64,000 bases of DNA. Origin: a virus (lineage: Duplodnaviria; Heunggongvirae; Uroviricota; Caudoviricetes). Below, piece by piece: positions 18,746-49,226 of the stretch (positions are counted from its first letter, which is position 1; every line of letters begins with the position of its first letter). The translations under genes were made by a program, and so were the position numbers. Below the pieces are notes generated by a model. The model was not told where the DNA came from. It saw nothing but the letters and a program-made list of their open reading frames with translations, and ran no database searches. The DNA lies in the IMG/VR virus record IMGVR_UViG_3300044535_000502. One strand, 5' to 3'.

Positions 18746-19495
18746 ATGGCCGCTCAACAAGGCTTCCAATACGAAATAAATGCCGCTAATGTCTTGAAAC
18801 CTATGGGTCTTGTGCCTAAAAGTTTTAAGCCAGCGGGAGCAGGACATGATCAACCAGATTTGATGCTTGAACATAAGAAAGACAAAGCTGGTTGTGAATT
18901 GAAAATCACGGCAGCGTCCGCTGGTTCCCTTGTTTTGAAATATGATGCGAAAGATAAAAAAAGTCCCTGGAAATTTGGCAATGTCAGTGAAGATGATGCT
19001 GAAAAGTTCTTTATTAAGAATCTAGCTGAAGAAGTTGGATTATTCAAAAGACTTAAAGCTGAGTGGAAAGAAATTCCTTTCAAGAGAGATAAAGATCCAT
19101 TATGGGAAGCCACTGCAGGTAAACTATCTCCTCAAAAGAGATATGAAAGGGATAGAGATACTTTTCAAGATATTCGTGGTGAGATTAGTGCAAAAGAAAT
19201 TGAAGATTATTACAACAAAAAAGATACTTACTATGTAAATGTTGGCACTCACGGTTTCTACTTAATGGGCTCAAAAAATCCCTTAAAGCTGAAAGACGTT
19301 CCTCGCTTCGGTACTTCTGCAAAAGCAACTTATAGAGCCAGGGTTCAATATAAAGGTAGCGGCAATTATCAGTTCACTTTTGAAATGCAATTTTCTATAC
19401 CATCAAGCAAAAAATCACCATTCAACATTGCTCCAGTTGATGGCAAAAGTGTCACAATTATCAAAAAAGATTTAAGTTTAGGGTGTTTTACGTAA
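18746..19495 (+). CDS. hypothetical protein (late-expressed?)
   Basis: 249 aa. The start was chosen at MAAQQG, which has a GGAG ribosome-binding site 6 nt upstream. No recognisable motif. Confidence 0.4.
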   Translation: MAAQQGFQYEINAANVLKPMGLVPKSFKPAGAGHDQPDLMLEHKKDKAGCELKITAASAGSLVLKYDAKDKKSPWKFGNVSEDDAEKFFIKNLAEEVGLFKRLKAEWKEIPFKRDKDPLWEATAGKLSPQKRYERDRDTFQDIRGEISAKEIEDYYNKKDTYYVNVGTHGFYLMGSKNPLKLKDVPRFGTSAKATYRARVQYKGSGNYQFTFEMQFSIPSSKKSPFNIAPVDGKSVTIIKKDLSLGCFT

Positions 19496-20727: not shown

Positions 20728-21032
20728 TGCAGTCATTCAAAGAACTGGTGAAAGAAGCATCTTATGCTGGTAACATCGGCATTATGGAACTTATCAAATT
20801 CAAGCAAAAAGCTACACCTGAACAGAAAAAGAAATTTGATGATCATGTGAAGAACAAGCGAACAAAGGATGCTTGGGATATGGTCCAGAAAGTCACTGGA
20901 GTTCAGCTACATAAAAGTGTGCATGAAGAAAAGAAGTCTCCTAATCCAGACATTCTGCCACCAGCTGGCGCAGGGCAAGAGGGCACAGACTTGCTAGTCA
21001 AGCGATACAAACGAGATACTCCAGGTCAGTAA
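20727..21032 (+). CDS. hypothetical basic protein
   Basis: 101 aa and Lys-rich. TAATG coupling to the upstream gene. Confidence 0.35.
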   Translation: MQSFKELVKEASYAGNIGIMELIKFKQKATPEQKKKFDDHVKNKRTKDAWDMVQKVTGVQLHKSVHEEKKSPNPDILPPAGAGQEGTDLLVKRYKRDTPGQ

Positions 21033-21048: not shown

Positions 21049-21777
21049 ATGAACCCATTGATCACAGTAATTACACCAACAACAGGAACTGCTCAATTAG
21101 CTGACGCAGTTCGGTCTGTTGATAATCAAACATACAAGAACATACAGCATCTAATCGTTGTTGATGGAGTTGAGCATTATGAAAATGCACTAGATTCCAT
21201 TGTCGGATCACGATATGCTAGTATACTCACATTACCATATAACACAGGTCATAGCCAATACAATGGTCATCGTATCTATGGTGCTATGACATTTATTGCT
21301 GAGGGCGAATACCTGTGCTTTCTAGACCAAGACAATTGGTACGATGATAATCACATTGAATCGCTAGTTAACCAACTCACAAGAGGTAATGATTGGGCAT
21401 ACTCATTACGCAAAATCGTTGATCAGGATGGCAACTACATTTGTAATGATGACTGTGAATCACTTGGTAAGTGGCAATCGGTGATCGGTGACAATTTTGT
21501 TGATGTGAACTGTTTCATGATACCGAAGATGGCCGCACTAGAATTTGCTCCATATTGGTATCGTAGAGCTAGACATCCTAACGATCAACCTGAAGTTGAT
21601 AGAATTCTTTCGGCATTTATGATGGCCAAGTCGAAAACATTTGACACGAATGGTCAATATACTGTAAACTATAGGGTGGCGAGTCGCGCAGACTCTGTAC
21701 AGGACTCATTCTTTATTCGCGGTAATAATGCGATGCAACAGCATTTGAAAGGAAACTATCCATGGCGAAAGATTTAA
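21049..21777 (+). CDS. glycosyltransferase family 2
   Basis: The N-terminus VITPTTGTAQLADAVRSVDNQTYKNIQHLIVVDG carries the typical GT2 signature, and a DQD (DxD) motif is present. Confidence 0.6.
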   Translation: MNPLITVITPTTGTAQLADAVRSVDNQTYKNIQHLIVVDGVEHYENALDSIVGSRYASILTLPYNTGHSQYNGHRIYGAMTFIAEGEYLCFLDQDNWYDDNHIESLVNQLTRGNDWAYSLRKIVDQDGNYICNDDCESLGKWQSVIGDNFVDVNCFMIPKMAALEFAPYWYRRARHPNDQPEVDRILSAFMMAKSKTFDTNGQYTVNYRVASRADSVQDSFFIRGNNAMQQHLKGNYPWRKI

Positions 21778-22646
21778 TAATTGGTGCATTTAGTAACTAC
21801 AGCGACTTCAACGTTGTCAAGCCGTGGATTCATTCCATCAAAGAAACTGGCTTCGATGGTGATATTGTACTGATTGCAATTGATGCACCGAAAAGTATTG
21901 TGTTAGAGATTGAAGACGCTGGTGTGACTGTTGTTGAGCATCCAAAGCAAGGCAACATGATGATTCACATGATGCGCTTCCTATACATCTACGATTTCCT
22001 GAAAAAGTACCATAACAAATATCGCTATGTCATCACTACAGATGTTCGTGATGTGATATTTCAGAGCAATCCTAGCTTGTATCTACACAATCTATATGGT
22101 AGCTACAAAGGTATCGTAGCACAATCGGAAGCAATCCAGATTCAGCATGAGCGATGGAATCGTGAAAACATCATCAAAAACTTTGGTCAATACTTCTATG
22201 AGGATATCAAAGAACATGAAGTATTCAACGTGGGCATCCTAGCGGGCACAACAGAATACATCAAGGACCTGTGCTTTGCACTATTTCAAATGTCTAGTAA
22301 TCGTCCCGACTGGGTTGCTGATCAAGCTGCATATAATATGTTGCTGAGTTTCAAGCCATGGAACGAGGTGGCGACATGTCTTCCACTGATGGATGGCTGG
22401 GCATTGAATGCACATGTGACAAATAAACCAGACCAGATGGACGAGTTTGGTCCATATTTACTTGAGGATCGTCCATACATGGAAGATGGTGTTGTTAAGA
22501 ACGCCGATGGTGAGCCTTTCGTTATTGTGCATCAGTACGACCGAGTGCCTGAGTGGACAAAATACTTCTATGATAAGTATGATGTGAAGATTACAACTGA
22601 AACTGATACTGGGTCATCTCCTAAGTATTTTACTATTACTACATGA
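21762..22646 (+). CDS. putative nucleotide-sugar-dependent glycosyltransferase (GT-A-like)
   Basis: 294 aa. The pattern IIGAFSNYSDFNVVKPWIHS...YVITTDVRDVIFQSNP is typical of GT-A-fold transferases. Confidence 0.35.
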   Translation: MAKDLIIGAFSNYSDFNVVKPWIHSIKETGFDGDIVLIAIDAPKSIVLEIEDAGVTVVEHPKQGNMMIHMMRFLYIYDFLKKYHNKYRYVITTDVRDVIFQSNPSLYLHNLYGSYKGIVAQSEAIQIQHERWNRENIIKNFGQYFYEDIKEHEVFNVGILAGTTEYIKDLCFALFQMSSNRPDWVADQAAYNMLLSFKPWNEVATCLPLMDGWALNAHVTNKPDQMDEFGPYLLEDRPYMEDGVVKNADGEPFVIVHQYDRVPEWTKYFYDKYDVKITTETDTGSSPKYFTITT

Positions 22647-22655
22647 AAGAATATT

Positions 22656-23210
22656 ATGAGCGATTACATTGTAATGAATACTAATCCTGCCAATGAGTGG
22701 ATTTGTTCAGGTAAAGGACTTCTGCTACTATTGCGTGATAAGGGACCACAGGTTGGTTTGGAGATCGGCTGTGCTGAAGGCCACACAACACACTATTTGC
22801 TGAAAAACTTACCTGAGTTGGTGTTGCATGGTATTGATCCGTATGTCAACTATGAAGACTGGAATGGTAGATTCCTGACAGATCGTGTTGACATGCACAA
22901 ACAGATTCTGGATTACTGTGCTGAGTTCGGTGATAGATTCGTCATGCATCGTGATTTCTCGGATAATATGGTCAATCATTTTGAAGATGACTCACTCGAT
23001 TTCATATTTATTGATGGAATACACACATACGAACAAGTCACGATTGACTGTGAGAATTACTTCAGTAAAGTAAAATCTGGTGGTGTTTTTGCAGGTCACG
23101 ATTACAATGTCATCGAAGGTGTAAATCGTGCGGTAAATGAATTTGCAGCCAAGCACGGCGCAGAAGTACAAACTTGTGCAAACGATGTATGGTACTGGAT
23201 CAAGAAATGA
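22656..23210 (+). CDS. class I SAM-dependent methyltransferase (TylF/CmcI-like O-methyltransferase family)
   Basis: Motif I GLEIGCAEGHTT. The downstream DFIFIDGIHTYE...GGVFAGHDY pattern is typical of this family. Confidence 0.55.
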   Translation: MSDYIVMNTNPANEWICSGKGLLLLLRDKGPQVGLEIGCAEGHTTHYLLKNLPELVLHGIDPYVNYEDWNGRFLTDRVDMHKQILDYCAEFGDRFVMHRDFSDNMVNHFEDDSLDFIFIDGIHTYEQVTIDCENYFSKVKSGGVFAGHDYNVIEGVNRAVNEFAAKHGAEVQTCANDVWYWIKK

Positions 23211-24004
23211 GTGAGACTGTCACAATTGTAACTGCGTTCTTTGACATTGGTAGGTCAAATTGGGAAGGTACTCTAAATGGTCAGCAACTGCCACACTACC
23301 TAAAGCGTGACACACAGACATATCTGGACAGATTCAAGCGACTAACTGAGCTAAAGAATCCTATCGTTGTTTTCACCGAAAGCAAATTCATTGACACCAT
23401 CAAGAGTTATCGTGACGATATCATCTGTGTTGTTGCTGATAACATTTTTGAAGACAACAACCAGCTACTGAGTCGTATCGCACACATTCAAAGACGCCCT
23501 GAGTTTATTGCGCATCTGAATCAACCAACGATGCCTGAGTATTGGTCGCCACATTATGTGTTCATAAATTACGCCAAATCTTTGTTTGTCAATACAGCAA
23601 TTAAGATGGGTCATGTGTCAACAGGCACGGCTGCTTGGTTAGACTTTGGATATGTGCGTGAAGATACATTCTGTCCTGCTGGAATGGAATGGAAGTTCAA
23701 CACACAGAATCTAATCAATCTGTTCTGTTTCTCCAACCCTGACGAAGCTGAACCTATATTCAATATCGTCAAGACAAATAATGTGTACGTCCAAGGCTGT
23801 CACATCGTTGCACCAGTTGAAAAGTGGAAGCAAATGGCAACACTCATGACACGGGCAATAATGAACTACATTGAAGTGGATTTGATTGATGATGATCAGT
23901 CCATGTTGCTCATGTCATACAAAATGTCACCGCACGACTTCAAAATCAATTATGTCAATCCTGACTATTGGTTTGTCATATTCAGAGACTTCAATCACAC
24001 ATGA
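23207..24004 (+). CDS. hypothetical protein, possibly involved in glycan or LPS modification
   Basis: 265 aa. ATGA overlap with the methyltransferase. Carries a TVTIVTAFFDIGRSNW motif (HtrL/YibB-like?). Confidence 0.3.
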   Translation: MSETVTIVTAFFDIGRSNWEGTLNGQQLPHYLKRDTQTYLDRFKRLTELKNPIVVFTESKFIDTIKSYRDDIICVVADNIFEDNNQLLSRIAHIQRRPEFIAHLNQPTMPEYWSPHYVFINYAKSLFVNTAIKMGHVSTGTAAWLDFGYVREDTFCPAGMEWKFNTQNLINLFCFSNPDEAEPIFNIVKTNNVYVQGCHIVAPVEKWKQMATLMTRAIMNYIEVDLIDDDQSMLLMSYKMSPHDFKINYVNPDYWFVIFRDFNHT

Positions 24005-24660
24005 ATGTATTCATCGTAACTTCCGCTTTGCTCACACAAGCTGGCGTTTTCAATACAATACAGAGGTTCAACGACACACTGGACACACTGAAATCTATTC
24101 GTGAGAAAGATCCAACAGCTATGATCTTTCTCGCTGATATCTCAGTTGCGCCACTTGGTGGAATGATAGATGAACTGCAAGAATATTGTAAGGTTGTGAG
24201 TTTCAATGATCATCATGCAGTCAAGATGTTTTCAACTCATGGCATGAAGAGTCATGGTGAAACAGTCATTCTTATGGAAATGCTGAATTTCATAAAGAGG
24301 CAAGGAATCGTGTGTGATAGAATATTCAAGTTGTCTGGTAGATATGTCCTTGATGATGGCTTTGACATTTCATATTATACAGACAAGCAAGGACATTATG
24401 TGTTTAAGCGCCGCAATGAAACATGGATGAATCCTGTTGTTTCTGGTGCAACACATTGCTTGGACACAAGACTGTTCTCACTGTGCTCCAGTCTAGCTGA
24501 TGATTATTTTGAAATATTACAGAAAAATCTCAATATTCTTGGACAATTGGACACAGAACATGTGCATTTTTTGCACATTCCAAAAGATAAGCTGGTTGAG
24601 GTTGACCGTGTGTATTGCACAGGAATGATCGCCAGGACTGGAGAATTAGTCAGAGATTGA
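24001..24660 (+). CDS. hypothetical protein, weak paralog of the preceding gene
   Basis: 219 aa. ATGA overlap. Its N-terminus MNVFIVTSALL resembles the neighbouring gene's TVTIVTAFF. Confidence 0.3.
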   Translation: MNVFIVTSALLTQAGVFNTIQRFNDTLDTLKSIREKDPTAMIFLADISVAPLGGMIDELQEYCKVVSFNDHHAVKMFSTHGMKSHGETVILMEMLNFIKRQGIVCDRIFKLSGRYVLDDGFDISYYTDKQGHYVFKRRNETWMNPVVSGATHCLDTRLFSLCSSLADDYFEILQKNLNILGQLDTEHVHFLHIPKDKLVEVDRVYCTGMIARTGELVRD

Positions 24661-24714: not shown

Positions 24715-27246
24715 ATGAAGTTCAGACAATATTTAGAAGAAACAACAGAAAAACATGCGGTCCTTGCGTTCGGACGCATGAATCCACCAACAACCGGTCA
24801 TGCAAAACTGGTTGATAAAGTCAAAGATGTTGCTAAGTCTGTGAGAGGAACACACCACGTGGTTCTATCGCATTCACAGGACGCTGAGAAGAATCCACTC
24901 TCAGGTGAGCAAAAAGTCAAACACGCACAACGATATTTTCCTGACACGAATATCACAACCTCCAGTAAAGAACATCCAAACTTTCTGGCTCAAGCATCAA
25001 AACTCCACAAAGCTGGCGCTACACATTTGCACATGGTTGCAGGATCCGATAGAACTGGTGAGTATGAGAAGATTTTACACAAATACAATGGCGTAAAAGG
25101 TACGCATGGATACTTCAAGTTTCGTGGTATTCACGTACACTCCGCTGGTGAGCGTGATCCTGATGCTGAGGGTGTATCTGGTATGTCTGCATCCAAGATG
25201 CGTAGCCATGCATCAAAAGGCAACTTCAAAGAATTCAAAAAAGGCATTCCAAGTCACGTAGCGCCAGAACACGCTAAAGAATTGTATAATGATGTGCGCA
25301 AGGGAATGCAAGTCAAAGAAGATTTCCGATCACAAATTCAGATGATCCTATCTGAGGGTGTCCACGATAAAGGCATCTTCAAGGCTGTGTTTCTATCGGG
25401 CGGTCCAGGCTCAGGTAAAGACTATGTGTTGGATAACACACTTGCTGGTCATGGCTTGATTGAAATCAACTCAGACAAAGCACTTGAGTTTCTGATGGAC
25501 AAGAATAATCTGGACAAGAAAATGCCAGAGACTGAAGCTGATGCACGGACACTTGTTCGCGGTAAAGCAAAAGACATGACAGAGTTGAAGCAGAAGCTGG
25601 CGCTGTTGGGTCGCAACGGCATCATTATCAATGGCACAGGCGATGATCCCGCAAAGTATGCCAAGATAAAGAAAAACTTAGAAGAAATTGGCTATGAAAC
25701 TTCTATGGTTGCCGTTGTTACACGCGATGAAATTTCTGCACAGAGAAACGTTGAGCGTGGGCAAAGAGGTGGTCGTACAGTTCCTGAGAATATTCGTAAA
25801 GAAAAGTGGGACGCAGTAAACAATTCACGCCCAGAGATGGCTAAGTTGTTTGGCAACAGCTATATTGAATTTGATAACTCTGAAGACTTGCGCACCGCAG
25901 CACCAGAAGTGGTCAAAGCCAAGAAAGAAGAGATGAACAACATCTTCAAGACTGTCCAAAAGTTTGTTCAAGCACCACCTAAGAATGAGCAAGCTAAGGC
26001 TTGGGTTGCTGGTGAACTACAGAAGAAAGACACCTTGCCTGTTCCTAAGAAAGGCACGGAACTGTCTATTCCACACTCCGCTGAGGGCGAAAACAAAGCA
26101 ACTGATGAAGCTAGACGCCTTGGGCTACAATACTATGGCTATGGCCGATATGGTAAGAATGGTAAAGTCACACATCACACAGTTCACGGAACTTTGGTGC
26201 AGGATCCAACACACGCTGAACAGCAAAAGATGATTAAGAAAACTGCTGAAGTTCCTATGAGTGGAGCTAGTAGCCAAAAGCCTGTGCCCAAGAAACCAGT
26301 CAAAGAGTCTATCAACGAAGATTTTCAGAATCTTTTTGAGGCCGTTTCAGTTACTTTCAAAGCTGATACCCCAGAAGAGCTACAAAAAGCAATGAAGATG
26401 CTGACTGGCAATGGAGATGCAGAAGTGGAAGAGCAGGAAGTTGAGGAGCACGTGGACCACACAGAAATGTCTGATTCTGGTGCATACAATCTATTGACGC
26501 TCGGAAAATCCATGTTTGTCTCCGAAAGTATCAGTGGTGAAAGAACTGCCGTAAAAGATGGAGCTACATATATTGCATCAGGCAACAAGCCTAAAGTATA
26601 TGCAATACGAAACAATGCTGCTAAAGACGCACACACCAAAGGTGGTGAAGTCGTTAAGACAGACAAAGGTTACATAGTTAAATTAAAGGAGAATGTAAAT
26701 GTTGAAATTCGTGAAAAGTTTCTTTGTGAAGAGCAAACCGCCAGTGGAACCGGAGCCACAACCATTGCCGAAAGTGGAAGCACCAGCCGTAGTGCCGGAG
26801 TCAGCACCGGAGCCACAACCATTGCCGAAAGTGGAAGTTCCGGTCGTAGTAGTACCAGAGCCATTACCGAAAGTGGAAGTGGAAGTTCCAGTGGTAACAG
26901 TGCAGGAACAAGTGCCAGTGCCAGTGCCGAAGCCAGCACCAAAAACATCCACGAAGCCAGCCGCTTTAAAGGCAAGCTCACCCTCTCGCAAGCCAAAAAC
27001 ACGTTCAAAGAAGCCATCGACAAAGGCATAGAAACTGGCATGTCCATGGCTGCTGGTGGCGAAGGCATTGGGCGTGACATGGGCGAAATCAATGACAAGA
27101 ATGGCAAAGTGAATCCTCTGAAAAAGAAACCTGTTGCTGAAATGGGTGGGGATTCAACCACAGCGTCAATTGGTGCACAAAAACAAGATGAACTGGCTAA
27201 ACATGGCATATCACTTAGCACGTTCAGAGGAAAGAATTACCTATGA
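24715..27246 (+). CDS. multidomain protein: N-terminal cytidylyl/adenylyl-transferase-like domain, central P-loop kinase domain, and a C-terminal Ser/Thr/Gly-rich repeat region
   Basis: MNPPTTGH is an HxGH-type motif and GMSASKMR an ISSTxxR-like motif, together indicating the nucleotidyltransferase alpha/beta fold. GGPGSGKD is a Walker A motif with a downstream lid. The C-terminus carries TTIAESGS repeats. A GGAG ribosome-binding site is present. 843 aa. Confidence 0.5.
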   Translation: MKFRQYLEETTEKHAVLAFGRMNPPTTGHAKLVDKVKDVAKSVRGTHHVVLSHSQDAEKNPLSGEQKVKHAQRYFPDTNITTSSKEHPNFLAQASKLHKAGATHLHMVAGSDRTGEYEKILHKYNGVKGTHGYFKFRGIHVHSAGERDPDAEGVSGMSASKMRSHASKGNFKEFKKGIPSHVAPEHAKELYNDVRKGMQVKEDFRSQIQMILSEGVHDKGIFKAVFLSGGPGSGKDYVLDNTLAGHGLIEINSDKALEFLMDKNNLDKKMPETEADARTLVRGKAKDMTELKQKLALLGRNGIIINGTGDDPAKYAKIKKNLEEIGYETSMVAVVTRDEISAQRNVERGQRGGRTVPENIRKEKWDAVNNSRPEMAKLFGNSYIEFDNSEDLRTAAPEVVKAKKEEMNNIFKTVQKFVQAPPKNEQAKAWVAGELQKKDTLPVPKKGTELSIPHSAEGENKATDEARRLGLQYYGYGRYGKNGKVTHHTVHGTLVQDPTHAEQQKMIKKTAEVPMSGASSQKPVPKKPVKESINEDFQNLFEAVSVTFKADTPEELQKAMKMLTGNGDAEVEEQEVEEHVDHTEMSDSGAYNLLTLGKSMFVSESISGERTAVKDGATYIASGNKPKVYAIRNNAAKDAHTKGGEVVKTDKGYIVKLKENVNVEIREKFLCEEQTASGTGATTIAESGSTSRSAGVSTGATTIAESGSSGRSSTRAITESGSGSSSGNSAGTSASASAEASTKNIHEASRFKGKLTLSQAKNTFKEAIDKGIETGMSMAAGGEGIGRDMGEINDKNGKVNPLKKKPVAEMGGDSTTASIGAQKQDELAKHGISLSTFRGKNYL
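26745..26945 (+). repeat. GC-rich tandem repeat (~57-bp unit, about 3 copies) inside the 24715..27246 CDS
   Basis: ggagccacaaccattgccgaaagtggaag recurs at about 26751, 26808 and 26857. It leaves long open frames on both strands. Confidence 0.7.
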
Positions 27247-27620
27247 AAAACTATAAAGATTTTGTCACTGAAGCTGGGCGCTGCTGGAAAGGCTATAAAC
27301 CTGTTCCAGGTAAGAAAGCATACTCACCCGATTCTTGTATGAAAGAAGAAACTGTAGTGGAAGCCGCAGTTGATGCTAAAGGACTAAAAAGCTCTACTGG
27401 TGGTCTAACTCAAAAGGGTCGTGACTACTACAACAGAAAAGATGGCGGCAATCTAAAAGCACCGGTTACAACACCACCATCAAAATTGACACCGGGCAGT
27501 AAAGCTGCTAACCGTCGCAAGTCATTCTGTGCTAGAATGGGTGGAGTGGAAGGTCCGATGAAGAAACCTAACGGAGAGCCGTCCCGTAAAGCTCTCGCAC
27601 TAAGAAAATGGAATTGCTAA
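27243..27620 (+). CDS. hypothetical basic protein
   Basis: 125 aa, Lys/Arg/Gly-rich. ATGA overlap with the upstream gene. Confidence 0.35.
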   Translation: MKNYKDFVTEAGRCWKGYKPVPGKKAYSPDSCMKEETVVEAAVDAKGLKSSTGGLTQKGRDYYNRKDGGNLKAPVTTPPSKLTPGSKAANRRKSFCARMGGVEGPMKKPNGEPSRKALALRKWNC

Positions 27621-29273
27621 GTGGCACAATTTAATAAAGATATTGGTGCGCTAGATCCGAAGATTTCATCTCGATATGAGGTGATGATGTTGGCTAATAA
27701 CGCTAATGGTGATATCGTTTCTCTCTCAAATCCTTTACCAGTAACTCTTGGTTCAGAAAATATCACAATTACTGGAAACGTGAATTTTGTGGATACGGTT
27801 AATGTCGCAAGTTCGCCAGAAAACCCAGTTCATACACACATTACGGAAGTTGGCACAAGTGGTTTATTGACTGTATCTTATATGCCAATAGGCGGAAATG
27901 TTAACATTGGCACAGACGGCATCGTTAGTTTATCGGCAAACACATTGTCAGCATTGGAAAATACCACAGTTACTATCAGCGGCACTCCTACAGTTAACAT
28001 TGGCACTATGCCTGAGGTAGAGATTAAAAACGACAGCGGCAATCCTATACCTATTAGTGGTAATGTAAATGCTACCCTAACTGGCACCAGTGCTGTAACT
28101 TTGGGGGCAGCGGCCACTGATGCGTTTGGACGGTTGCGTGTAAGTAATCCATATACACTGTTCGATGGTGGTCTGCGTTACTTTGACAATACATACAAGT
28201 GGGACCAAGTGGACACAGGCTCTGTCACTTCCTCTTTCTTACCTAACGAAAGTTCTATTCTAATGAGCGCTACAGGAGCAGGATCGGCCATTCGTCAGAC
28301 TAAACAGGTATTTTCCTACCAGCCTGGTAAGAGTCTATTGGTTCTGTTGACCTTTGTTATGAACGCTCCTACCGCTGGCGTTACACAACGAGCAGGCTAT
28401 TTCGGAGCACAGAACGGCATCTACTTTGAAGTAGCAGACACCACAAAAAATCTAGTTATTAGAAAATACACTTCTGGTTCAGTAGATGACACTACGGAAA
28501 AATTCCCTCAAAGTTTGTGGAATGGTGATAAATTAGATGGAACTGGAGCCAGCGGAATAACATTAGATGTAACCAAAGCACAAATCTTCTGGACAGACAT
28601 AGAATGGTTAGGTGTAGGGACAGTTCGTTGTGGATTTGTGATTAACGGACAGTTCATCGTTTGTCACAGTTTTCATCATGCCAACATATTAAACAAGGTC
28701 TATATGACCAGTGCTACGTTACCCCTACGATATGAATTGATCAGCACTGGACCCGCAGCCTCAATGAGAGCAATCTGTAGTACAGTTATGTCGGAAGGCG
28801 GTTATAGTAATCGCAGTTTTACCCGTGCCATAGGAACAGCACTAACTGGTAAGGACCTCAGCAATACCGTGTACAGACCATTAGTCTGTTTACGCATGAA
28901 GTCAACAGCCCCGGACTCTATTGTAGTGCCCACTGCGTTCGATGTATTTGGACTACAACAAGCAGCCTTTTCATATCGCATTATTCTCAATCCCACATTG
29001 ACTGATGCTAATTGGACCAGTGCTGACACAGACAGTACAGTAGAGTATGACATCTCTGCTACAGCATTATCTGGCGGCAAAGTAATAACGCAAGGTGTAT
29101 TTGTAGGATCTAATAAGGGCGGATCCGCTCAAGTTACTAGCAACGAAATAGACTTTAGTCAACAGTTAGGTAGAACTATAGCAGGTGTATCAGACATATG
29201 GTGTTTGGCAGCAATAGCCACTACCAACAACGATGATGCTGTGGGCATTGTAAACTGGCAGGAACATAACTAA
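27621..29273 (+). CDS. large beta-rich protein, probably a virion structural protein or adhesin (possible GTG start)
   Basis: 550 aa. The N-terminus has short Thr/Gly/Asn/Val repeats (NVNIGTDG.., TVNIGTMP..), which suggest a beta-helix. The C-terminus looks jelly-roll-like. Confidence 0.35.
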   Translation: MAQFNKDIGALDPKISSRYEVMMLANNANGDIVSLSNPLPVTLGSENITITGNVNFVDTVNVASSPENPVHTHITEVGTSGLLTVSYMPIGGNVNIGTDGIVSLSANTLSALENTTVTISGTPTVNIGTMPEVEIKNDSGNPIPISGNVNATLTGTSAVTLGAAATDAFGRLRVSNPYTLFDGGLRYFDNTYKWDQVDTGSVTSSFLPNESSILMSATGAGSAIRQTKQVFSYQPGKSLLVLLTFVMNAPTAGVTQRAGYFGAQNGIYFEVADTTKNLVIRKYTSGSVDDTTEKFPQSLWNGDKLDGTGASGITLDVTKAQIFWTDIEWLGVGTVRCGFVINGQFIVCHSFHHANILNKVYMTSATLPLRYELISTGPAASMRAICSTVMSEGGYSNRSFTRAIGTALTGKDLSNTVYRPLVCLRMKSTAPDSIVVPTAFDVFGLQQAAFSYRIILNPTLTDANWTSADTDSTVEYDISATALSGGKVITQGVFVGSNKGGSAQVTSNEIDFSQQLGRTIAGVSDIWCLAAIATTNNDDAVGIVNWQEHN

Positions 29274-29299: not shown

Positions 29300-31093
29300 A
29301 TGTTCAACGATAAAATTCTAAAATCAGTGGCCGAAGCAGTGAAAGCTGTTGTGGACGAAGCACTGAAAGGCGATCAACACAAGATCGATAAAAACAAAAA
29401 CGGCAAAGTTGATGCACACGACTTCAAGTTGTTGCGCAAAGAGGAAGCCAAGAAGCCTGCTAGCCCATTTGACTGGAAGAATACTCCACGCCAAACTGCT
29501 GAAAAAGGTGAGAAGACTGGCCACGATGCTAAGAAAATCTCCACAGGCACTGTGTACACTAAGAAGTATACAAAAGAAGAAGCATCTCAAGAAGAGTTCA
29601 ACAAAGAGATCAAGATAGCACAAGACAAGTCCATTGGCAAGAGCAAAGCTGAAGTTGCAAAGCCTGCTGTGCAAGCTGTCAAGCAAGAATCTGTTGAACA
29701 ACTAGATGAACTGAGCAAGAAGACTCTTGGTAAATATATTAAGGCTGCCCGAGATAATGTGAGAAATAGATCATACATGATAGGACGTGATGTTTCTAAA
29801 CTTAAACCGTCCCCACAACATGTCCGTAAAGTTAAAAATTCAACTACTGGTATACAAAGAGCGGTAGATCGTTTGACTAAAGAAGAAGTTGAACAAATTG
29901 ATGAGTTAAGTAAGAAGACACTCGGTTCATACATCAATAAAGCTGTAAGCAGTGTAGCAAATAAAGATTATAATATTGGACGTCTGCACTTTGGCGACCA
30001 ACCTGAAAAAAAAGCTGATGTGAAACAGCAAGCCCGCGAAATAAAAAAAGATGAACGTGTGATTAAAAAGCGAAATCGCGGCGTTGATCGCGCTGTTAAA
30101 CGTTTGACTAGAGAAGAATATGAAAACTTAGATGAACTTGAATTTACTGTTGAAGATGTTGAAAACTTCATGCAAACTGAAGAATTTGAACAACTAGATG
30201 AACTGAGCAAGAAGACTCTTGGTAAATATATCAATAAAGCCCAAGGCAGGGTGAGGTATGCCGCACACGAGGTAGGTCATCATCTTACTACACTGGAACG
30301 AAATCGTAGGACGCCAGGAAACTTCCGTAGACTTAAAAATTCAACTACTGGTATACAAAGAGCGGTAGATCGTTTGACTAAAGAAGAAGTTGAACAAATT
30401 GATGAGTTAAGTAAGAAGACACTCGGTTCATACATCAATAAAGCTGTAAGAAGTCAAGCAGATAGAGAGCATAATATTGCAAGCGTGGCGTATGGTGCCC
30501 AACCTGAAAAAAAAGCTGATCAGGTTCGTAACGCCCGCGAAATGAAAGCAGATCAGCGTGTGATTAAAAAGCGAGACCGCGGCGTTAAAAAAGCTGTTAA
30601 ACGTTTGACTAGAGAAGAATATGAAAACTTAGATGAACTTGAATTTACTGTTGAAGATGTTGAAAACTTCATGCAAACTGAAGAATTTGAACAACTAGAT
30701 GAACTAAAGAAGTCTACACTAGCATCCTATGTCAAGAAAGCATCTCATGATGTTGCACACAAGGGCGCATTGACTCGTCAACATGCTAATGATTCAGAAG
30801 CTGCACGTAAAGATTCACGCTACAATGATGCTAGAAAGAGCATGGAGAAAGCAGATAAAACTTTTGCTAAGTCTTGGAAGCGCCGCGAAAACATGGGCAA
30901 AGCTGTTGATCGTTTAGCTAAGGAAGAAGTTGAGCAAATTGAAGAGCGTTCATTGACCACCGCTGAAAAGGCTGCATTGGAAAAGAATGTCAAAGGCATG
31001 AAGAAGAACATTGCTGGCTTCAAAGAGCGTTATGGCAAAGATGCTAAGTCTGTTATGTACGCTACGGCCACCAAGCAAGCCAAGGGAGAGTAA
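29300..31093 (+). CDS. Lys/Glu-rich internally repeated protein (EEVEQIDELSKKTLGSYINKA motif repeated five or more times)
   Basis: 597 aa. A strong ribosome-binding site AAAGGAAA is present. Two ~167-aa tandem units are nearly identical. Confidence 0.6.
   Translation: MFNDKILKSVAEAVKAVVDEALKGDQHKIDKNKNGKVDAHDFKLLRKEEAKKPASPFDWKNTPRQTAEKGEKTGHDAKKISTGTVYTKKYTKEEASQEEFNKEIKIAQDKSIGKSKAEVAKPAVQAVKQESVEQLDELSKKTLGKYIKAARDNVRNRSYMIGRDVSKLKPSPQHVRKVKNSTTGIQRAVDRLTKEEVEQIDELSKKTLGSYINKAVSSVANKDYNIGRLHFGDQPEKKADVKQQAREIKKDERVIKKRNRGVDRAVKRLTREEYENLDELEFTVEDVENFMQTEEFEQLDELSKKTLGKYINKAQGRVRYAAHEVGHHLTTLERNRRTPGNFRRLKNSTTGIQRAVDRLTKEEVEQIDELSKKTLGSYINKAVRSQADREHNIASVAYGAQPEKKADQVRNAREMKADQRVIKKRDRGVKKAVKRLTREEYENLDELEFTVEDVENFMQTEEFEQLDELKKSTLASYVKKASHDVAHKGALTRQHANDSEAARKDSRYNDARKSMEKADKTFAKSWKRRENMGKAVDRLAKEEVEQIEERSLTTAEKAALEKNVKGMKKNIAGFKERYGKDAKSVMYATATKQAKGE
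29836..30835 (+). repeat. ~500-bp tandem duplication (2 copies) within the 29300..31093 CDS
   Basis: Segments at about 29841-29950 and 30341-30450 are near-identical, as are 30003-30210 and 30503-30710. Confidence 0.7.
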
Positions 31094-31094
31094 T

Positions 31095-32762
31095 ATGAGA
31101 AGTTTCAAGCAGATTGCAAGTCTTGTCCGCGGTGAGGACATTTTGGAAGAGGGTAAAAAGTCTCTTGGAACAGGATGGATGCTGAAGGCTGATCCGAAGT
31201 TGGGAAAAGCTGTCAAAGATAAGCTCGACCTTGCTAAAAAACGTCAGGCAACTTATGGTGATAAATCTGCTGGCAAATCCATCAAAGAAGAAGAAACCAT
31301 TGAAGAAGCTGGTCTGTGGGACAACATTCATGCCAAGCGTGAAAGAATCAAAAAAGGTTCAGGTGAACGTATGCGTAAGCCTGGCTCAGAGGGTGCACCA
31401 TCCGAGAAGGATTTGAAAAACTCACAGACTAATGAAGAGGTTGAACTGGCCGAAGCTGACGCCAAAGACTATCACTCAGTACATGTCAATGGTCGTCACT
31501 GGAAAACATTTGATACCAAGTCTCATGCCGAGAACGTTGCAAAGAAAGTCAAAGGCGCTACAGTACATAAGTATGATGCTGAGAGACTGCAACAAAACTA
31601 TGGTGCAAAATCTGCGGCTAGAAATGCGGCACGTGGTAAGCAGTGGGATGAGTCTGTTGATGTTGAGCAACTAGATGAAATGCCTGGTGCTAACATGGAT
31701 ACCCGTGCTGTGCATCAACATCTGAAGAAGCGTGGTTGGAAACTTTCGCGCACATCAGGTAGCCACGATGTATACACACATCCAGAAGCAAAGCACCACA
31801 TTCCAGTTCCACGTCATCGTCAATTAAAGGCACCATTGGTCAAAGGTATTCTGAAACAAGCTGAAATCAATGAGCAAGCTGAATCGGATACCACCGAAAA
31901 AACTGAGATGGCCCAAACGCAACTACACTTCATCAAGTATGCCGCTGAAGAAATTCTTGAGTTCATTGAGATGGGTGGTGAAATTGAAGAGTGGTATCAG
32001 AACAAACTATCTAAAGTTCAAAGTGATGTAGAATCACTACACTCATACATTGAAGGTGAGTCTCGCCGTACAGGGATGAAGGAAGAAGTTGAGCAGATTG
32101 ATGAGTTGTCAAAGAAAACTCTTGGCTCCTATGTCAATAAAGCAATGGACAGCGCAAGAGAATTGCCTGGCACCGGCACAAACGCTGAGGCGAGTAAGAA
32201 GACAAAACGATACGCTGCTGTTTCTGCTGCTGCATATCGCACACAAGGTCTTGCACCAAGAAAAGGTACTGATATGTTTAAGAAGTACAAAGCTGAGAGT
32301 GTTGTGGCGGAAGAAGTTGGTCAAACTAGCAACTCCAACGAGAATCCGGACGCTGGTCGTTTCACATCCGGACCAGCTAAGAAGCCTGCGAAGCCTACAC
32401 CTATCATTACTGCTGAACAAACTGCAACAGACTTGGGTAAAGAGCGTTATGAGGTTCCATTTGATGGTCCTTATACCAAAAATACAACAAAAGTGACAAC
32501 AGACAAATCTGGCGCAAAACACACAGCAATGTCTAGAGTTAAGCACCTCGCAAAGACTGCTGCACGTAAACAAGCAGGTCTAAAAGAAGAGCAAGAGCCG
32601 GAAGATTCTTTTGAGAAAACAAGCACACCTGCGAAACGTTCACTGTCTAAGACTGCTGGCATCGTAAAAGATTTGGCTAAGAATTCTAAGTCATCTAGCA
32701 AAGAAAAAGCTGATACATTCCAAGCTGAACCTGAGCTATCATCACAGATCATCAAAACATAA
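31095..32762 (+). CDS. Lys/Glu-rich protein with an embedded HicA-toxin-like (YcfA) domain and one copy of the EEVEQIDELSKKTLGSY repeat
   Basis: Residues ~201-257 read KKRGWKLSRTSGSHDVYTHPEAKHHIPVPRHRQLKAPLVKGILKQAEI, which matches the HicA signature (GSH..HP..VP.H..L..g.L..IlkqA). The start was chosen at MRSFKQ, which has an AAGGGAGAG ribosome-binding site. Confidence 0.55.
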   Translation: MRSFKQIASLVRGEDILEEGKKSLGTGWMLKADPKLGKAVKDKLDLAKKRQATYGDKSAGKSIKEEETIEEAGLWDNIHAKRERIKKGSGERMRKPGSEGAPSEKDLKNSQTNEEVELAEADAKDYHSVHVNGRHWKTFDTKSHAENVAKKVKGATVHKYDAERLQQNYGAKSAARNAARGKQWDESVDVEQLDEMPGANMDTRAVHQHLKKRGWKLSRTSGSHDVYTHPEAKHHIPVPRHRQLKAPLVKGILKQAEINEQAESDTTEKTEMAQTQLHFIKYAAEEILEFIEMGGEIEEWYQNKLSKVQSDVESLHSYIEGESRRTGMKEEVEQIDELSKKTLGSYVNKAMDSARELPGTGTNAEASKKTKRYAAVSAAAYRTQGLAPRKGTDMFKKYKAESVVAEEVGQTSNSNENPDAGRFTSGPAKKPAKPTPIITAEQTATDLGKERYEVPFDGPYTKNTTKVTTDKSGAKHTAMSRVKHLAKTAARKQAGLKEEQEPEDSFEKTSTPAKRSLSKTAGIVKDLAKNSKSSSKEKADTFQAEPELSSQIIKT

Positions 32763-32788: not shown

Positions 32789-33349
32789 ATGACACTATGG
32801 GCAAAATCAGATTCAAGCAACGCGGCACCAAAACACGCAGGCGTTGCAGCTACTAACAATGCAAACGGAGCAACACTGTTTGGTAGCACAACTATCGGTG
32901 CATTCACACCTAGACAAGCTGTTGGCATTTTCGGTGTTGACAGTACTGAACAGGGCGTTGCGGCTAATCCAAAAGGAGCACACGCAGGTTGGGTTGTTGT
33001 AAAGCAAGGCACAGGTCCTGTTGCAACACTTACAGCGAATGCAAGTTCATACTCACCTGACGGTAACGTATTCTTGACATTCACTGGCGGTGGCACAGGT
33101 AACACTTCCGCTAACGCACGTATCGTTACAAACGGTGCAAAGTTGATTACTGGTATTACACTGACAACTGGTGGTAACTACTTGGCTGCACCAACAATCG
33201 GCGCGGTGCCAAACTCTAACGTATCAATTACAATCACCATGGGTGGTCGTGTCGGGCGCGAACACACAGAGACTCTTGTTGCTATGGGCAGCATCGGTCA
33301 AGCAGGTGTTGCTGACGCTTCCGATGACACAGTGTTTGCAGACAGCTAA
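32789..33349 (+). CDS. Gly/Thr/Ala-rich protein, probably structural
   Basis: 186 aa. A strong AAGGAG ribosome-binding site is present. Low-complexity G/T/A/N composition. Confidence 0.4.
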   Translation: MTLWAKSDSSNAAPKHAGVAATNNANGATLFGSTTIGAFTPRQAVGIFGVDSTEQGVAANPKGAHAGWVVVKQGTGPVATLTANASSYSPDGNVFLTFTGGGTGNTSANARIVTNGAKLITGITLTTGGNYLAAPTIGAVPNSNVSITITMGGRVGREHTETLVAMGSIGQAGVADASDDTVFADS

Positions 33350-33711
33350 TGAATTTCAAAGAATTCATCACGGAGTCAATGGATGGTGGAGATGAAGTCT
33401 CCATTGACTCAGTAACGCAGGGTAAACTCAATCTGTTGTTGATGGTTGAGCTAACTCAGCCTGTCTTGACACCAGAATCGGGTATCGCAAAGATTCGTAA
33501 AATACTTTATCTTGAGGGAATCGCATTTGAGTCCCTTTATGATTTGAACACTGAAGGTGAAGAATTAGCAACACACTTATCTGGCGATAGTTTTCTGTAT
33601 ATTCTGTATTATCCAACGGATGATGGATACTATGATTTTTATGCTGAGATTATGGATGAAAGTGGTGTAGAGCAAGCAATGTCTGAACTGGAAGGGGAAG
33701 ACGAAAGCTAA
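33349..33711 (+). CDS. hypothetical acidic protein
   Basis: 120 aa, highly acidic. TAATG coupling. Confidence 0.35.
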   Translation: MNFKEFITESMDGGDEVSIDSVTQGKLNLLLMVELTQPVLTPESGIAKIRKILYLEGIAFESLYDLNTEGEELATHLSGDSFLYILYYPTDDGYYDFYAEIMDESGVEQAMSELEGEDES

Positions 33712-33712: not shown

Positions 33713-34105
33713 ATGTCTTTTGATGATTTGACTAGTGAGAACATCCTACTATATGCAGTCAAGGCTTATGATAAGCCTAATTGCATTATGAGTGAGTTCA
33801 AAGAAGACATGAAGCGGTTCAATTATTTGAAGCGCCTGTTCTATCGTTATCGAAAAGAAGGCGAGATGCGTGAGCGTCTTGTCATCAATCACTTGATAGT
33901 GCTATACAATGTTTTTGGTGTTGAAGTTGCTACTAGAATGTTGTTTTTCAAGGTACATAAAGAGGATTACCACACACTCAAAACATATCTGCTGTTTCTA
34001 AATTACATGCCGAGTGTTGTTATGGGTATTAGAGGCAATAACATCATATCGTCAGACATAGATGTTGACATGAAAGTTGCTGAGGTTCTTAGGGAAATAA
34101 AATGA
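33713..34105 (+). CDS. hypothetical protein
   Basis: 130 aa ORF. Confidence 0.35.
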   Translation: MSFDDLTSENILLYAVKAYDKPNCIMSEFKEDMKRFNYLKRLFYRYRKEGEMRERLVINHLIVLYNVFGVEVATRMLFFKVHKEDYHTLKTYLLFLNYMPSVVMGIRGNNIISSDIDVDMKVAEVLREIK

Positions 34106-34434
34106 CAATAAAAGAAGATGCTCCAACAAACTCTGTAGGTGGTGGTAATGTAGCTGGTATCGGTGTGCCAAACCCTAATATTCCAAATCAAGCTGAACCA
34201 GGCATTAAACGTAAGAAGTTTGCTGGTTCTACCGTATTCACTGTGCCATCCAAATCCTTTGTCATGGCTAAGATGCTGAAACGTAAGGGCGCCAGATTTG
34301 AATCCTATCTTGGTGATTCTGGTGTGTCCAAAGAGATTGCAGACTATGCTAATGCCAACTGGAAAGAAGGCATTGTGCTAGAAGATGAACAAACTGGTGC
34401 AATGGTATACCTGAGATACGGCAGAGGCAACTAA
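34102..34434 (+). CDS. hypothetical protein
   Basis: 110 aa. ATGA overlap with the upstream gene. Confidence 0.35.
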   Translation: MTIKEDAPTNSVGGGNVAGIGVPNPNIPNQAEPGIKRKKFAGSTVFTVPSKSFVMAKMLKRKGARFESYLGDSGVSKEIADYANANWKEGIVLEDEQTGAMVYLRYGRGN

Positions 34435-39168: not shown

Positions 39169-40962
39169 ATGGAAAGTATCGTTCACGATATTAGAGTGGA
39201 TTATTCTCGGGATAATCTATTCGATGATTTAGGTAGGAAGCGCCTTAAAGAAAGCTACATGAAAGATGAGGAACAATCACCACAGGAGAGATTCGCGTTT
39301 GTCAGCAAAACTTTTGGATCTAATCAAGCACATGCTCAGAGGTTGTATGAATATTCTTCTAAGCATTGGCTCAGCTATTCTACACCTATCCTTTCTTTTG
39401 GTCGTAGCAGCCGGGGCCTACCTATTTCTTGCTTTCTACCATATCTCCACGATAGTGCAGAAGGTTTGGTGGATTGTCTCTCGGAGGTAAACTGGCTGAG
39501 TATGCTCGGCGGAGGTATTGGAATTGGATTCGCTATTCGTTCTGCTGATGACAAGTCTACTGGCATCATGCCTCATCTTAGGACTTATGATGCATCAAGC
39601 CTCGCCTATAGGCAGGGCCGTACTCGCCGCGGTTCTTATGCCGCTTATCTTGATATTAGCCATCCAGATATTCCTCTATTTTTGGATATGAGGAAGCCAA
39701 CTGGTGATCCAAATATGCGGGCCTTGAACTTGCATCACGGTATCAATATCACCGATGACTTCATGCAATTGGTTGAGCAGGCTATGTTGGATCCAAATGC
39801 TGATGATAGTTGGCACTTCCGTGATCCACATGATAACACCATTCGTGATACAGTATCAGCTAAAGAGTTGTGGCAACAAGTCCTTGAAATGCGTATGTTG
39901 ACAGGTGAGCCATACATCCACTTCATTGACACAAGCAATCGTGCAATGCCACAGTTTCAGAAAGACTTGGGCTTGAAGATTGCACAATCCAATCTGTGTT
40001 CTGAAATCATTCTTCCAACAAACAAAGACCGCACCGCGGTGTGTTGCCTGTCTTCCGTGAATCTGGAGTACTATGATGAATGGAAAGATGATCCACTATT
40101 CATTCGTGATATCGCAGAGATGTTAGACAACGTTTTGCAATACTTCATCGACAATGCACCAGACACCATCGCAAGGGCTAAATTCTCTGCTATGCGTGAG
40201 CGAAGCATTGGTATCGGTGCACTGGGCTTCCATGCATTCTTGCAGAAAAAGGGAATTGCATTTGAAGGTGTGATGGCTAAGTCATACAACATCCAGATGT
40301 TCAAGAACATCCATACAAAGGGCGCTGTTGCTAATCTTGAGTTGGGTAAAGAGCGAGGTGAGGCACCTGATGCTGTCGGCACAGGCCGCAGATTCAGCCA
40401 CATGTGGGCTATTGCACCAAATGCATCATCGTCCATCATCATGGGCAATACATCACCATCCATTGAACCATACCGCGCAAATGCTTATCGCCAAGACACA
40501 CTGAGTGGTTCTTCACTGAACAAGAATCGTTGGTTGGACAAGATCATTCAGAAAGAAGCTGAGACTCATACAGATGGCTGGGCTGATGAAGTTTGGTCGT
40601 CAATCATTGCCAACGATGGCTCGGTGCAACACCTAACATGGATGAATGAAAATGATCGTGAAGTGTTCAAGACTTCTATGGAGATTGATCAGCGTTGGGT
40701 CATTGAACACGCCGCAGATAGACAGCCATACATTGATCAAGCACAGAGTTTGAATCTATTCTTCCGTCCAGATGCACACATCAAGTATATCCATGCTTGC
40801 CATTTCCTAGCATGGAAACGTGGGTTGAAGACTTTGTACTATTGCCGCAGTGAGAAGTTGGCTAAAGCGGATAAGGTATCAAAGCGCATTGAGCGTGAAA
40901 TCATCAAAGAATTGGACTTGAGTGCAATCATTGGTGGTGATGAATGCCTAGCTTGCCAATAA
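39169..40962 (+). CDS. nrdA: ribonucleotide reductase class I alpha subunit (no ATP-cone)
   Basis: Active-site motif NLCSEI and a C-terminal CxxC redox pair (ECLAC). 597 aa. Confidence 0.85.
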   Translation: MESIVHDIRVDYSRDNLFDDLGRKRLKESYMKDEEQSPQERFAFVSKTFGSNQAHAQRLYEYSSKHWLSYSTPILSFGRSSRGLPISCFLPYLHDSAEGLVDCLSEVNWLSMLGGGIGIGFAIRSADDKSTGIMPHLRTYDASSLAYRQGRTRRGSYAAYLDISHPDIPLFLDMRKPTGDPNMRALNLHHGINITDDFMQLVEQAMLDPNADDSWHFRDPHDNTIRDTVSAKELWQQVLEMRMLTGEPYIHFIDTSNRAMPQFQKDLGLKIAQSNLCSEIILPTNKDRTAVCCLSSVNLEYYDEWKDDPLFIRDIAEMLDNVLQYFIDNAPDTIARAKFSAMRERSIGIGALGFHAFLQKKGIAFEGVMAKSYNIQMFKNIHTKGAVANLELGKERGEAPDAVGTGRRFSHMWAIAPNASSSIIMGNTSPSIEPYRANAYRQDTLSGSSLNKNRWLDKIIQKEAETHTDGWADEVWSSIIANDGSVQHLTWMNENDREVFKTSMEIDQRWVIEHAADRQPYIDQAQSLNLFFRPDAHIKYIHACHFLAWKRGLKTLYYCRSEKLAKADKVSKRIEREIIKELDLSAIIGGDECLACQ

Positions 40963-40976
40963 CAAAAGGAATAAAA

Positions 40977-41414
40977 ATGAAAAAAATAATAATCGGTGCT
41001 ATGATAGCACTAACCGCAATCGCAAGTTTTGCACAAAAAGAAAAAGCTGGTGTTGCATATGATGCAGTATTGACCAGAGTAATTGATGGTGACACAGTGG
41101 CGTTTCAAGCTAACTGGTTGCCTGAGCCTCTGAAAAAGGAATTGAGTGTCCGTGTATTTGGTGTTGATACACCTGAGAAGGGTCATCGCGCAATGTGCCC
41201 AAGTGAAGATGCACGTGGTCAAGCTGCAACTGCATTCACTAAGGCACAAATCAATGGGGCACAGAAACGCCAAGTTGTATTGATGGGTTGGGACAAATAT
41301 GGTGGGCGTGTATTGGGTGATATTTTGCTTGACGGCAAGAGCCTGCGTCAAATGTTGATAACAAATGGTTTTGCCCGTGAGTACTACGGCGAAGCTAAAA
41401 CATCATGGTGCTGA
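40977..41414 (+). CDS. secreted staphylococcal-nuclease (SNase/thermonuclease)-like nuclease
   Basis: Signal peptide MKKIIIGAMIALTAIASFA. SNase motifs VIDGDTV and VRVFGVDTPEKG. Confidence 0.65.
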   Translation: MKKIIIGAMIALTAIASFAQKEKAGVAYDAVLTRVIDGDTVAFQANWLPEPLKKELSVRVFGVDTPEKGHRAMCPSEDARGQAATAFTKAQINGAQKRQVVLMGWDKYGGRVLGDILLDGKSLRQMLITNGFAREYYGEAKTSWC

Positions 41415-48626: not shown

Positions 48627-48720
48627 TAGCAATATCCTTTCAATAATGGTGTAATCCTAGCAATATCCTTGCTGAAACCACTGTATAAAAGCACAGTGCT
48701 ACTCCACTACTGACGTTTCC

Positions 48721-48728
48721 TATAAATA
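48721..48728 (+). promoter_or_regulatory. T4-type late promoter TATAAATA
   Basis: Exact match 8 nt upstream of the 48736 ATG. It is preceded by a 13-bp direct repeat (tagcaatatcctt x2) and a hairpin (cactgt..acagtg). Confidence 0.45.
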
Positions 48729-48735
48729 TTGCATT

Positions 48736-49053: not shown

Positions 49054-49067
49054 GAATAAAGGAAATG

Positions 49068-49226
49068 CATGAATACAATAAAGCACGAATGCGAAAATTG
49101 TGACAACGCCTTCAAGATAGTATATGATGGAGACGAGTGCAACGCCGATCCAATTCATTGTCCTTTCTGTGCCGAGTATCTAATTGATACGCCGTCCGAG
49201 GAGTCCGATGACAGCATGGACGATTG
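49068..49226 (+). CDS. small zinc-ribbon ORF (52 aa)
   Basis: CENC...CPFC. An AAAGGAAA ribosome-binding site is present. Confidence 0.3.

Follow-up and report, generated by a model that had tools for sequence, protein, structure and literature searches.

A HicA-type toxin domain with no HicB partner detected, carried by a modular and putatively head-packaged protein of an uncultured T4-like phage

HicA is the toxin half of bacterial HicAB modules and is held in check by an antitoxin. In phage T4, the capsid-targeting sequence (CTS) comprises the first 10 residues of a protein (PMC9026906; PMC3012670), in which residues 4 and 7 are important for targeting and processing involves residues 8 and 10, and the gp21 protease cuts after L/I-x-E (PMC9026906). 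The CTS may be a general loading route for diverse proteins into the heads of T4-like phages (PMC9026906). The subject here is a modular, charged protein of 555 amino acids (aa), the HicA protein, encoded on the plus strand at positions 31095..32762 of a 64,000-nucleotide stretch of viral DNA (IMG/VR record IMGVR_UViG_3300044535_000502; hereafter the window), in which a HicA domain stands behind an N-terminal leader resembling the CTS. The chances appear about even that this is a head-packaged, protease-processed cargo polyprotein which would deliver a basic 65-aa HicA ribonuclease (RNase) at injection, its packaging, cleavage and activity all being predictions. Separately, HicA, the T4 CTS and cleavage by gp21 are well known; no description was found of their combination, an antitoxin-less HicA cassette on leader-tagged candidate head-cargo proteins.

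The Pfam search identified HicA_toxin (PF07927) as the only family in the 555-aa protein, at aa 206-258 (31710..31868), scoring 47.4 bits (gathering threshold 27 bits; E 2.1e-12) and covering profile positions 4-58 of 58. PHROG 353, annotated 'toxin', was matched at E 1.4e-14. When compared with PDB sequences by phmmer, the domain matched B. pseudomallei HicA (4c26, 6g26), G222-S223-H224 aligning to G22-S23-(H24A), as the aligned structure carries the H24A mutation (A24). The AlphaFold2 (AF2) model gave aa 201-256 predicted local distance difference test (pLDDT) values of ~88-91 and the order helix, three strands, helix (H203-212, E216-221, E224-228, E235-239, H246-256), and the top five PDB matches found by Foldseek were all HicA proteins: 6g26_E, with a template modelling (TM) score of 0.86 and a root-mean-square deviation of 1.5 Å, and 1whz, 4c26 and 4p78. 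Residues 196-260 (31680..31874) are a bona fide HicA-family domain, with a fold like that of double-stranded-RNA-binding domains (dsRBD) and an intact catalytic Gly-x-His. An earlier, sequence-only reading of the window had proposed a HicA-type domain at 31695..31866; these nucleotides encode aa 201-257, and the peptide it quoted, KKRGWKLSRTSGSHDVYTHPEAKHHIPVPRHRQLKAPLVKGILKQAEI, is found at aa 211-258. It had named beforehand two findings that would speak against the proposal, failure of profile searches to recover HicA and loss of the GSH histidine in homologues: the profile match lies well above threshold, and among 57 distinct homologous domains G222 is kept in 57/57 and H224 in 56/57.

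In B. pseudomallei HicA, the G22C and H24A mutations each abolish toxicity (PMC3969222). In the 80-sequence alignment, all invariant columns lie in aa 195-254. They include an unusual set of histidines invariant in the subfamily (H207, H209, H229, H241), and the domain begins with an additional invariant N-terminal segment, MPGANMDTR, which canonical HicA does not have. The domain is presumably an active RNase, judging by its residues. A domesticated nucleic-acid binder without RNase activity, for example a dsRBD-like one that binds packaged DNA or RNA in a structural or regulatory role, would agree with the dsRBD-like fold of HicA (PMC3969222), with the highly basic character of the domain (isoelectric point, pI, 10.4) and with the unusual histidines and the extra segment. 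A pure binder would, however, not need both the Gly and the His that are essential for HicA toxicity, and these are strictly conserved. The sequence-only reading had offered a 'domesticated RNA-binding module' as one of its two explanations; the intact catalytic residues weaken it, and we consider it improbable.

No HicB was found by Pfam among the genes flanking the HicA gene, and none in the precomputed Pfam annotation within ±10 kb in five related phages. Among the 80 small open reading frames (ORFs) of the window there was likewise none at E<4e-5, the 25 best families being listed and weaker matches being possible. The earlier statement that there is no adjacent HicB agrees with these results, since neither the genes around HicA in the window nor those in four related phages include a HicB family. 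Of the features of type II HicAB modules, both the adjacent hicB gene and the small stand-alone toxin of ~60 aa are absent. If the protein is head cargo, no antitoxin would be needed, because the proposed target is the host and not the producer.

Directly after the basic HicA domain, the protein has an acidic helical hairpin (aa 261-326, 31875..32072, pI ~4.4; AF2 helices 260-292 and 299-325), and such a hairpin is present in most of the 120 best homologues. This is what a cryptic toxin-antitoxin system could look like, in which HicA is neutralised by the hairpin or by the product of a neighbouring gene and serves addiction or superinfection exclusion. The hairpin is missing, however, from the DUF6321-type proteins, from the proteins P0124 and P0143 and from minimal forms of 78-83 aa (all described below), searches in and around the gene in the five phages gave no HicB-like family, and the phage looks strictly lytic and T4-like; we regard such a system as very improbable. 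The hairpin as an obligatory fused cis-antitoxin was rejected, since many members of the family have no hairpin.

The T4 internal proteins IPII and IPIII start MKTYQEFIAE/A and IPI starts MKTFKEFTSTTTPVSTITE/A (genes from NC_000866; here and below a slash marks the junction). The HicA protein starts with the leader MRSFKQIASLVRGEDILEE/G (aa 1-19, 31095..31151), in which F4, I7 and [IL]xE at 17-19 stand in the register of IPI, and LEE19 is kept in 37/42 homologues. The similarity is one of sequence only. Five neighbouring proteins, all encoded on the plus strand, share the leader pattern, so that six window proteins start with it: the DUF6267 protein (19495..20727; MKFKEFLTE/S), a 101-aa protein (20727..21032; MQSFKELVKE/A), an 843-aa NMNAT-like nucleotidyltransferase with a Zeta-type kinase (24715..27246; MKFRQYLEE/T), the DUF6321 protein (27243..27620; MKNYKDFVTE/A) and an acidic 120-aa protein (33349..33711; MNFKEFITE/S), the leader of which is conserved on homologues in related phages. 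At internal ATG positions of the window the motif occurred in 0/570 cases, and in 41 related loci it was present at 49/957 ORF N-termini compared with 11/4441 internal Met, a ~20-fold enrichment. The five further leader-bearing genes suggest a whole set of putatively head-loaded enzymes.

Leaders of this kind are found also in T4-like cyanophages, where NMNAT homologues start MK[SK]F..F[FL].E/A. The DUF6321-associated and NMNAT proteins start MKSYNEFISE in S-RIM8, MKKFSDFLTE/AA in S-SSM4, MKSFTSFFTE/A in P-TIM68 and MKSFSKFFSE/A in S-SCSM2R. The DUF6321 and GLW modules of podovirus S-RIP1 have no leader (GLW being a basic module that is present also in the HicA protein). As a separate observation, these two modules are adjacent stand-alone small ORFs in T7-like cyanophages (S-RIP1, locus L013, 2923..3368; P-SCSP1 phages), and in the T4-like lineage they are fused into leader-bearing proteins. 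Literature searches for DUF6321, DUF6267 and DUF7207 found nothing, and a search pairing the capsid-targeting sequence with cyanophage returned a single review, on T4.

Tripeptides of the form [LI]xE occur 11 times in the HicA protein, compared with 5.3±2.1 in shuffled sequences (P=0.0085), and several of them are conserved and stand directly ahead of a recognised module. After LEE19, which is followed by G, the next conserved site is IEE71 (30/31), ahead of AGLW and the GLW module (aa 72-110, GLWDNIHAKRERIKKGSGERMRKPGSEGAP, 31308..31424; phrog_16028, E 8e-17), which T7-like cyanophages and pelagiphages encode as a separate ORF of 53 aa. LAE120 (18/44) precedes a small beta domain of 38 aa (aa 124-161, 31464..31577), folded in the AF2 model as strand-strand-helix-strand (strands 126-131, 134-139 and 155-160, helix 142-151; pLDDT 78-83) and matching nothing in Pfam or the PDB. 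The junction VDVEQLDE (aa 188-195, 31654..31679) ends in the invariant LDE195 and is followed by MPGANM of the HicA module; [LI]xE is conserved here in 80/80 aligned homologues. After HicA comes I/VxE260, with [LI] in 37/80, E in ~95% of the domains and V, I or L at the first position in ~96%. Further on are IDE337 ahead of LSKK (37/37) and LKE498 ahead of the C-terminal tail (61/75); the conserved tail region spans aa 478-555 (32526..32759), with columns 486-552 nearly invariant across the family. Cleavage at E195 and E260 would give a fragment of 65 aa with pI 10.4, similar in size to stand-alone HicA and to T4 IPI* (76 aa).

In every diverse representative [LIV]xE stands ahead of M.GANM, including those in which HicA is N-terminal behind a short peptide, such as MNDNDQLDE/MPGANM, MDQEKEIEE/MAGANM, MTDEFNEEESLME/MPGANM and MLTIDE/MFGANV. 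At the DNA level, a 29-nt junction repeat is present in nine copies over the HicA gene and the gene upstream of it (29300..31093), the copy at 31654..31679 lying directly before HicA. Recombination between such repeats may be a simple way for the cassette to move.

The HicA domain forms a discrete, mobile cassette that is highly conserved. The position at which it begins ranges from residue 5 to residue 464 in the 120 best homologues. When 1.84 billion cluster representatives were searched exhaustively, 99 clusters were found at E<=1e-10, and ~90/99 of these closest representatives were proteins of 120-1097 aa with the domain in varied positions; ordinary HicA toxins of 60-90 aa appeared only at values weaker than E 1e-10. 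A word-indexed search with the 81-aa HicA segment found 7 proteins only. The cassette is carried by at least five protein types of one conserved gene cluster: the window-type 555-aa protein; DUF6321 proteins with the arrangement leader-EVEILDE/HicA/..VELDE/DUF6321; the NMNAT/kinase protein P0143; the 110-aa Gly-rich protein P0124, homologous to window 34102..34434; and minimal leader-plus-HicA proteins of 78-83 aa (for example MLTFKEFIAE/G...), one of which adjoins the gp41 helicase and a DUF6321 gene. Four of the five types have a leader-like N-terminus (MK.F…), missing or doubtful in some members, and the fifth has none.

The position of the cluster can be compared with that in S-SCSM1, a cultured T4-like cyanophage in whose CsCl-purified virions 45 proteins were identified by mass spectrometry (MS; PMC9602691). 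Its gp41-gp61 interval corresponds in position to the window cluster and consists mostly of genes for MS-detected virion proteins, seven in number (ORF89-93, 95 and 97). One of them, the NMNAT protein ORF91, starts MKSFLQFLKE/AA; NMNAT-like proteins recur in the virion proteomes of cyanophages, according to the S-SCSM1 authors (PMC9602691). ORF89 and ORF92 are rich in Lys and Glu and have the linkers EEVENVDE and EEVELDE, and elsewhere in the genome the DUF6321 protein ORF29 is annotated as an MS virion protein. BLAST of the window cluster against S-SCSM1 ORF89-98 linked NMNAT and DUF7207 only, the other correspondences being positional and compositional and without sequence homology. In its own right it may be recorded that ORF93 (locus L060, 15627..15836), a 69-aa MS virion protein, has a CTS-like ending, ...KKKRTFKEFLEYIE, at its C-terminus and not at its N-terminus.

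Two further genes lie directly upstream of the HicA gene. The product of 29300..31093 (+), a charged repeat protein of 597 aa with repeated EQ[LI]DE junctions, stands where S-SCSM1 has MS-detected charged virion proteins. Within its gene a 501-bp tandem duplication, with a 300-nt core that is 87% identical (29823..30122 and 30324..30623), gives two protein repeats of ~167 aa (aa 174-310 and 341-477). The preceding gene, 27621..29273 (+), encodes a homologue of a cyanomyovirus 'virion structural protein' (phrog_1645, E 2e-110), with 41-49% identity in tblastn to cyanophage and HMO-2011 structural proteins.

Taken as T4 internal-protein-type head cargo, the HicA protein would be brought into the prohead core as a precursor by its leader. 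A gp21-type prohead protease would then cut after L/I-x-E, at LEE19, IEE71, LDE195, I/VxE260, IDE337 and LKE498, and so free the basic HicA of ~65 aa, which would be packaged together with the phage DNA and reach the next host by ejection. It would begin to cleave the RNA of that host as soon as infection starts, and the outcome might be host shut-off or destruction of an RNA-dependent defence. The EEVEQ[LI]DE linkers, being repeated in the DNA, may double as joints at which recombination carries the cassette from one cargo protein to another. The sequence-only reading had proposed an 'injected effector' as its other explanation, and this now has in its favour the CTS-like leader, the conserved gp21-type [LI]xE junctions and a position matching the S-SCSM1 virion cluster; packaging and RNase activity remain putative.

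Several points weigh against the head-cargo explanation. The leader has a residue other than Glu at position 10 and agrees with the longer, IPI-type form only, and the leader motif is present also on large enzymes (843 aa, 410 aa), so that it could have another role. With two fixed residues, [LI]xE is a short motif for a protein so rich in Glu, and in the upstream repeat protein it is not enriched (8 sites, with 6.1 expected; P=0.25). The gp21/gp22/gp23 module lies outside the window and outside the flank of up to 10 kb that was examined, and the gp21 homologue of the phage was not seen. The T4 late-promoter motif TATAAATA occurs six times in the window against 2.5 expected, and none of these is directly upstream of the HicA gene; the nearest late-like box, CATAAATA at 32758, lies downstream of it and ahead of the next gene. 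An unspecific injected RNase would hit early phage transcripts too. The packaging, cleavage, RNase activity and target of the HicA protein are steps that we infer.

The missing late promoter would suit a cytoplasmic RNase that is not packaged and breaks down mRNA of the host or the phage in the cell where it is made, as does RegB, a cytoplasmic endoribonuclease encoded by T4 (T4 genome annotation). On this view neither the N-terminal motif nor the [LI]xE tripeptides would be connected with the head. The intact catalytic residues, the missing antitoxin and the location of the gene amid replication and nucleotide-metabolism genes are all in keeping with this. It leaves unexplained, however, why most carriers of the cassette are leader-bearing members of a single cluster, why [LIV]xE always stands ahead of it, even in the N-terminal forms, and why the proteins encoded at the matching place in the S-SCSM1 genome are detected by MS in virions, and we rate it as rather unlikely. 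The head-cargo explanation can be extended to a modular 'cargo polyprotein' system in aquatic T4-like phages, in which CTS-tagged proteins would be strings of small modules joined by EEVEQ[LI]DE linkers serving both as protease sites and as recombination joints, and an antitoxin-less HicA would be injected pre-emptively against host RNA or RNA-dependent defence. This wider picture is put forward tentatively, as possible and somewhat short of probable.

The HicA gene itself is an open frame with no internal stop, and its translation has the 555 aa given in the sequence-only reading, which had also described the product as Lys/Glu-rich (98 K+R and 86 D+E) and had noted strong ribosome-binding sites in this block. 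The HicA gene has a strong Shine-Dalgarno sequence, AAGGGAGAG, 5 nt ahead of its ATG and still within the 3' end of the upstream gene. The two genes are translationally coupled, the ATG lying 1 nt past the upstream stop, and the same spacing was found in all related phages compared. The description as a repeat protein stood in part. The HicA protein has no internal repeat, and it contains one copy of the 22-aa unit EEVEQIDELSKKTLGSYVNKA that is repeated 5-6 times in 29300..31093; this linker and helix unit, EEVEQIDE/LSKKTLGSYVNKA, is at 32079..32150. The AF2 model of the whole protein, built with 80 homologues, was mostly of low confidence (mean pLDDT 56).

The window comes from an uncultured aquatic T4-like myovirus. 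It encodes the T4-like replication set of gp43, UvsX, gp41 helicase, gp45, gp44/62, RegA and gp61 primase, together with ThyX and NrdAB, and UvsW, gp47 and gp46 are just upstream in the flanking sequence examined. The gp43 polymerase is ~52% identical to cyanomyovirus polymerases. Megablast of the 9 kb around the HicA gene against 50,697 phage records gave no match, and the window had no near-identical record among these genomes. The whole 555-aa protein matched the phage records in tblastn by its GLW module of 40 aa alone, in podoviruses. There is therefore no cultured close relative among these records. The lineage is widespread in metagenomes: an identical 555-aa protein was found on 21 public metagenomic contigs of up to 143 kb, and its homologues number at least 1499, on contigs of up to 174-214 kb.

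The HicA gene is located between the gp41 helicase and the gp61 primase, and synteny is kept in four other genomes of the lineage. The conserved order runs from sugar-modification genes through the NMNAT-like/Zeta-kinase protein of ~800 aa, the DUF6321 protein and the variable charged protein or proteins to the HicA protein, and continues with a 187-aa protein, the acidic protein of 120-128 aa, DUF7207, lysis genes, primase and ribonucleotide reductase. The leader-bearing genes are interrupted at 21049..24660 by genes for glycosyltransferases, a methyltransferase and an HtrL/YibB-like protein. Related phages (L005-L007) have epimerase, methyltransferase and sugar-isomerase genes in place of this block, which may be involved in the glycosylation of DNA or virions.

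Some other features of the window were recorded. A staphylococcal-nuclease-like (SNase) protein at 40944..41414, between nrdA and nrdB and overlapping the thioredoxin gene, has a hydrophobic, signal-like N-terminus. At ~48700..62640 the long plus-strand array gives way to small minus-strand ORFs with few family matches, and a change in the sign of the GC skew accompanies the strand switch. Within the minus-strand block, a 68-aa ORF (55844..56050, -) encodes a type II (R67-like) dihydrofolate reductase (Pfam DHFR_2, E 2.5e-22), with 67% identity over 52 aa to what we take to be the R67 sequence. Dihydrofolate reductases of the R67 type are the plasmid-borne trimethoprim-resistance type and are unusual for a T4-like phage.

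If the head-cargo explanation is true, the internal-protein paradigm of T4 would hold far outside the T-even phages, the few enzymes that phages inject with their DNA would come to include an RNase, and the toxin of a bacterial toxin-antitoxin system would have been repurposed as an injected phage weapon. It would explain the recurrence of non-structural enzymes such as NMNAT in cyanophage virion proteomes, and direct tests of the capsid-targeting leaders and gp21-type sites of aquatic phages would become possible. Foreign proteins could also be loaded into phage heads by means of a natural leader-plus-linker system.

Among known systems, the polyvalent proteins are similar in being multi-domain effectors predicted to be injected with the DNA, some with RNase domains (PBECR) (Iyer et al. 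2017, PMC5512222); the HicA protein differs from them in its tiny modules separated by protease-type linkers. Membership in the polyvalent proteins was considered and rejected, as Pfam found no hallmark domain (Zn-metallopeptidase/MPTase, ART, ArdC, helicase/methylase or LPD), and HicA is not mentioned in the survey of these proteins (PMC5512222). In phiKZ and SPN3US, many head-internal ejection proteins are likewise cut after Glu at short motifs by a gp21-like protease, and the propeptides have multiple redundant sites (PMC9026906), whereas the motif there is S/A-x-E and the phages belong to another lineage. T4 Alt is a head-packaged enzyme that is delivered with the DNA and cut by gp21 at both ends (PMC9026906), and the cyanomyovirus NMNAT-like enzyme, present in the S-SCSM1 virion, has the same leader as the window proteins; the two are an ADP-ribosyltransferase and an adenylyltransferase, respectively, in contrast to the putative RNase here.

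With the HicA toxins (PF07927; 4c26/6g26) the domain shares the fold, the Gly-Ser-His catalytic turn, the HP and PxH motifs and the basic surface. It differs in being embedded in a 555-aa modular phage protein, in place of a 60-aa stand-alone toxin, in the lack of a HicB, and in the invariant [LI]xE-MPGANMDTR N-terminal extension and the extra invariant histidines. With T4 IPI, IPII and IPIII, the HicA protein shares a T4-like background and a leader with an aromatic residue at 4, a hydrophobic one at 7 and a terminal [ILV]xE. Small, basic and variable cargo modules are common to both, as is a hypervariable cargo family in which only the leader is conserved. The T4 internal proteins differ from the multi-module polyprotein described here, which carries an enzyme toxin and is known from sequence alone; IPI* of T4 is an inhibitor of restriction.

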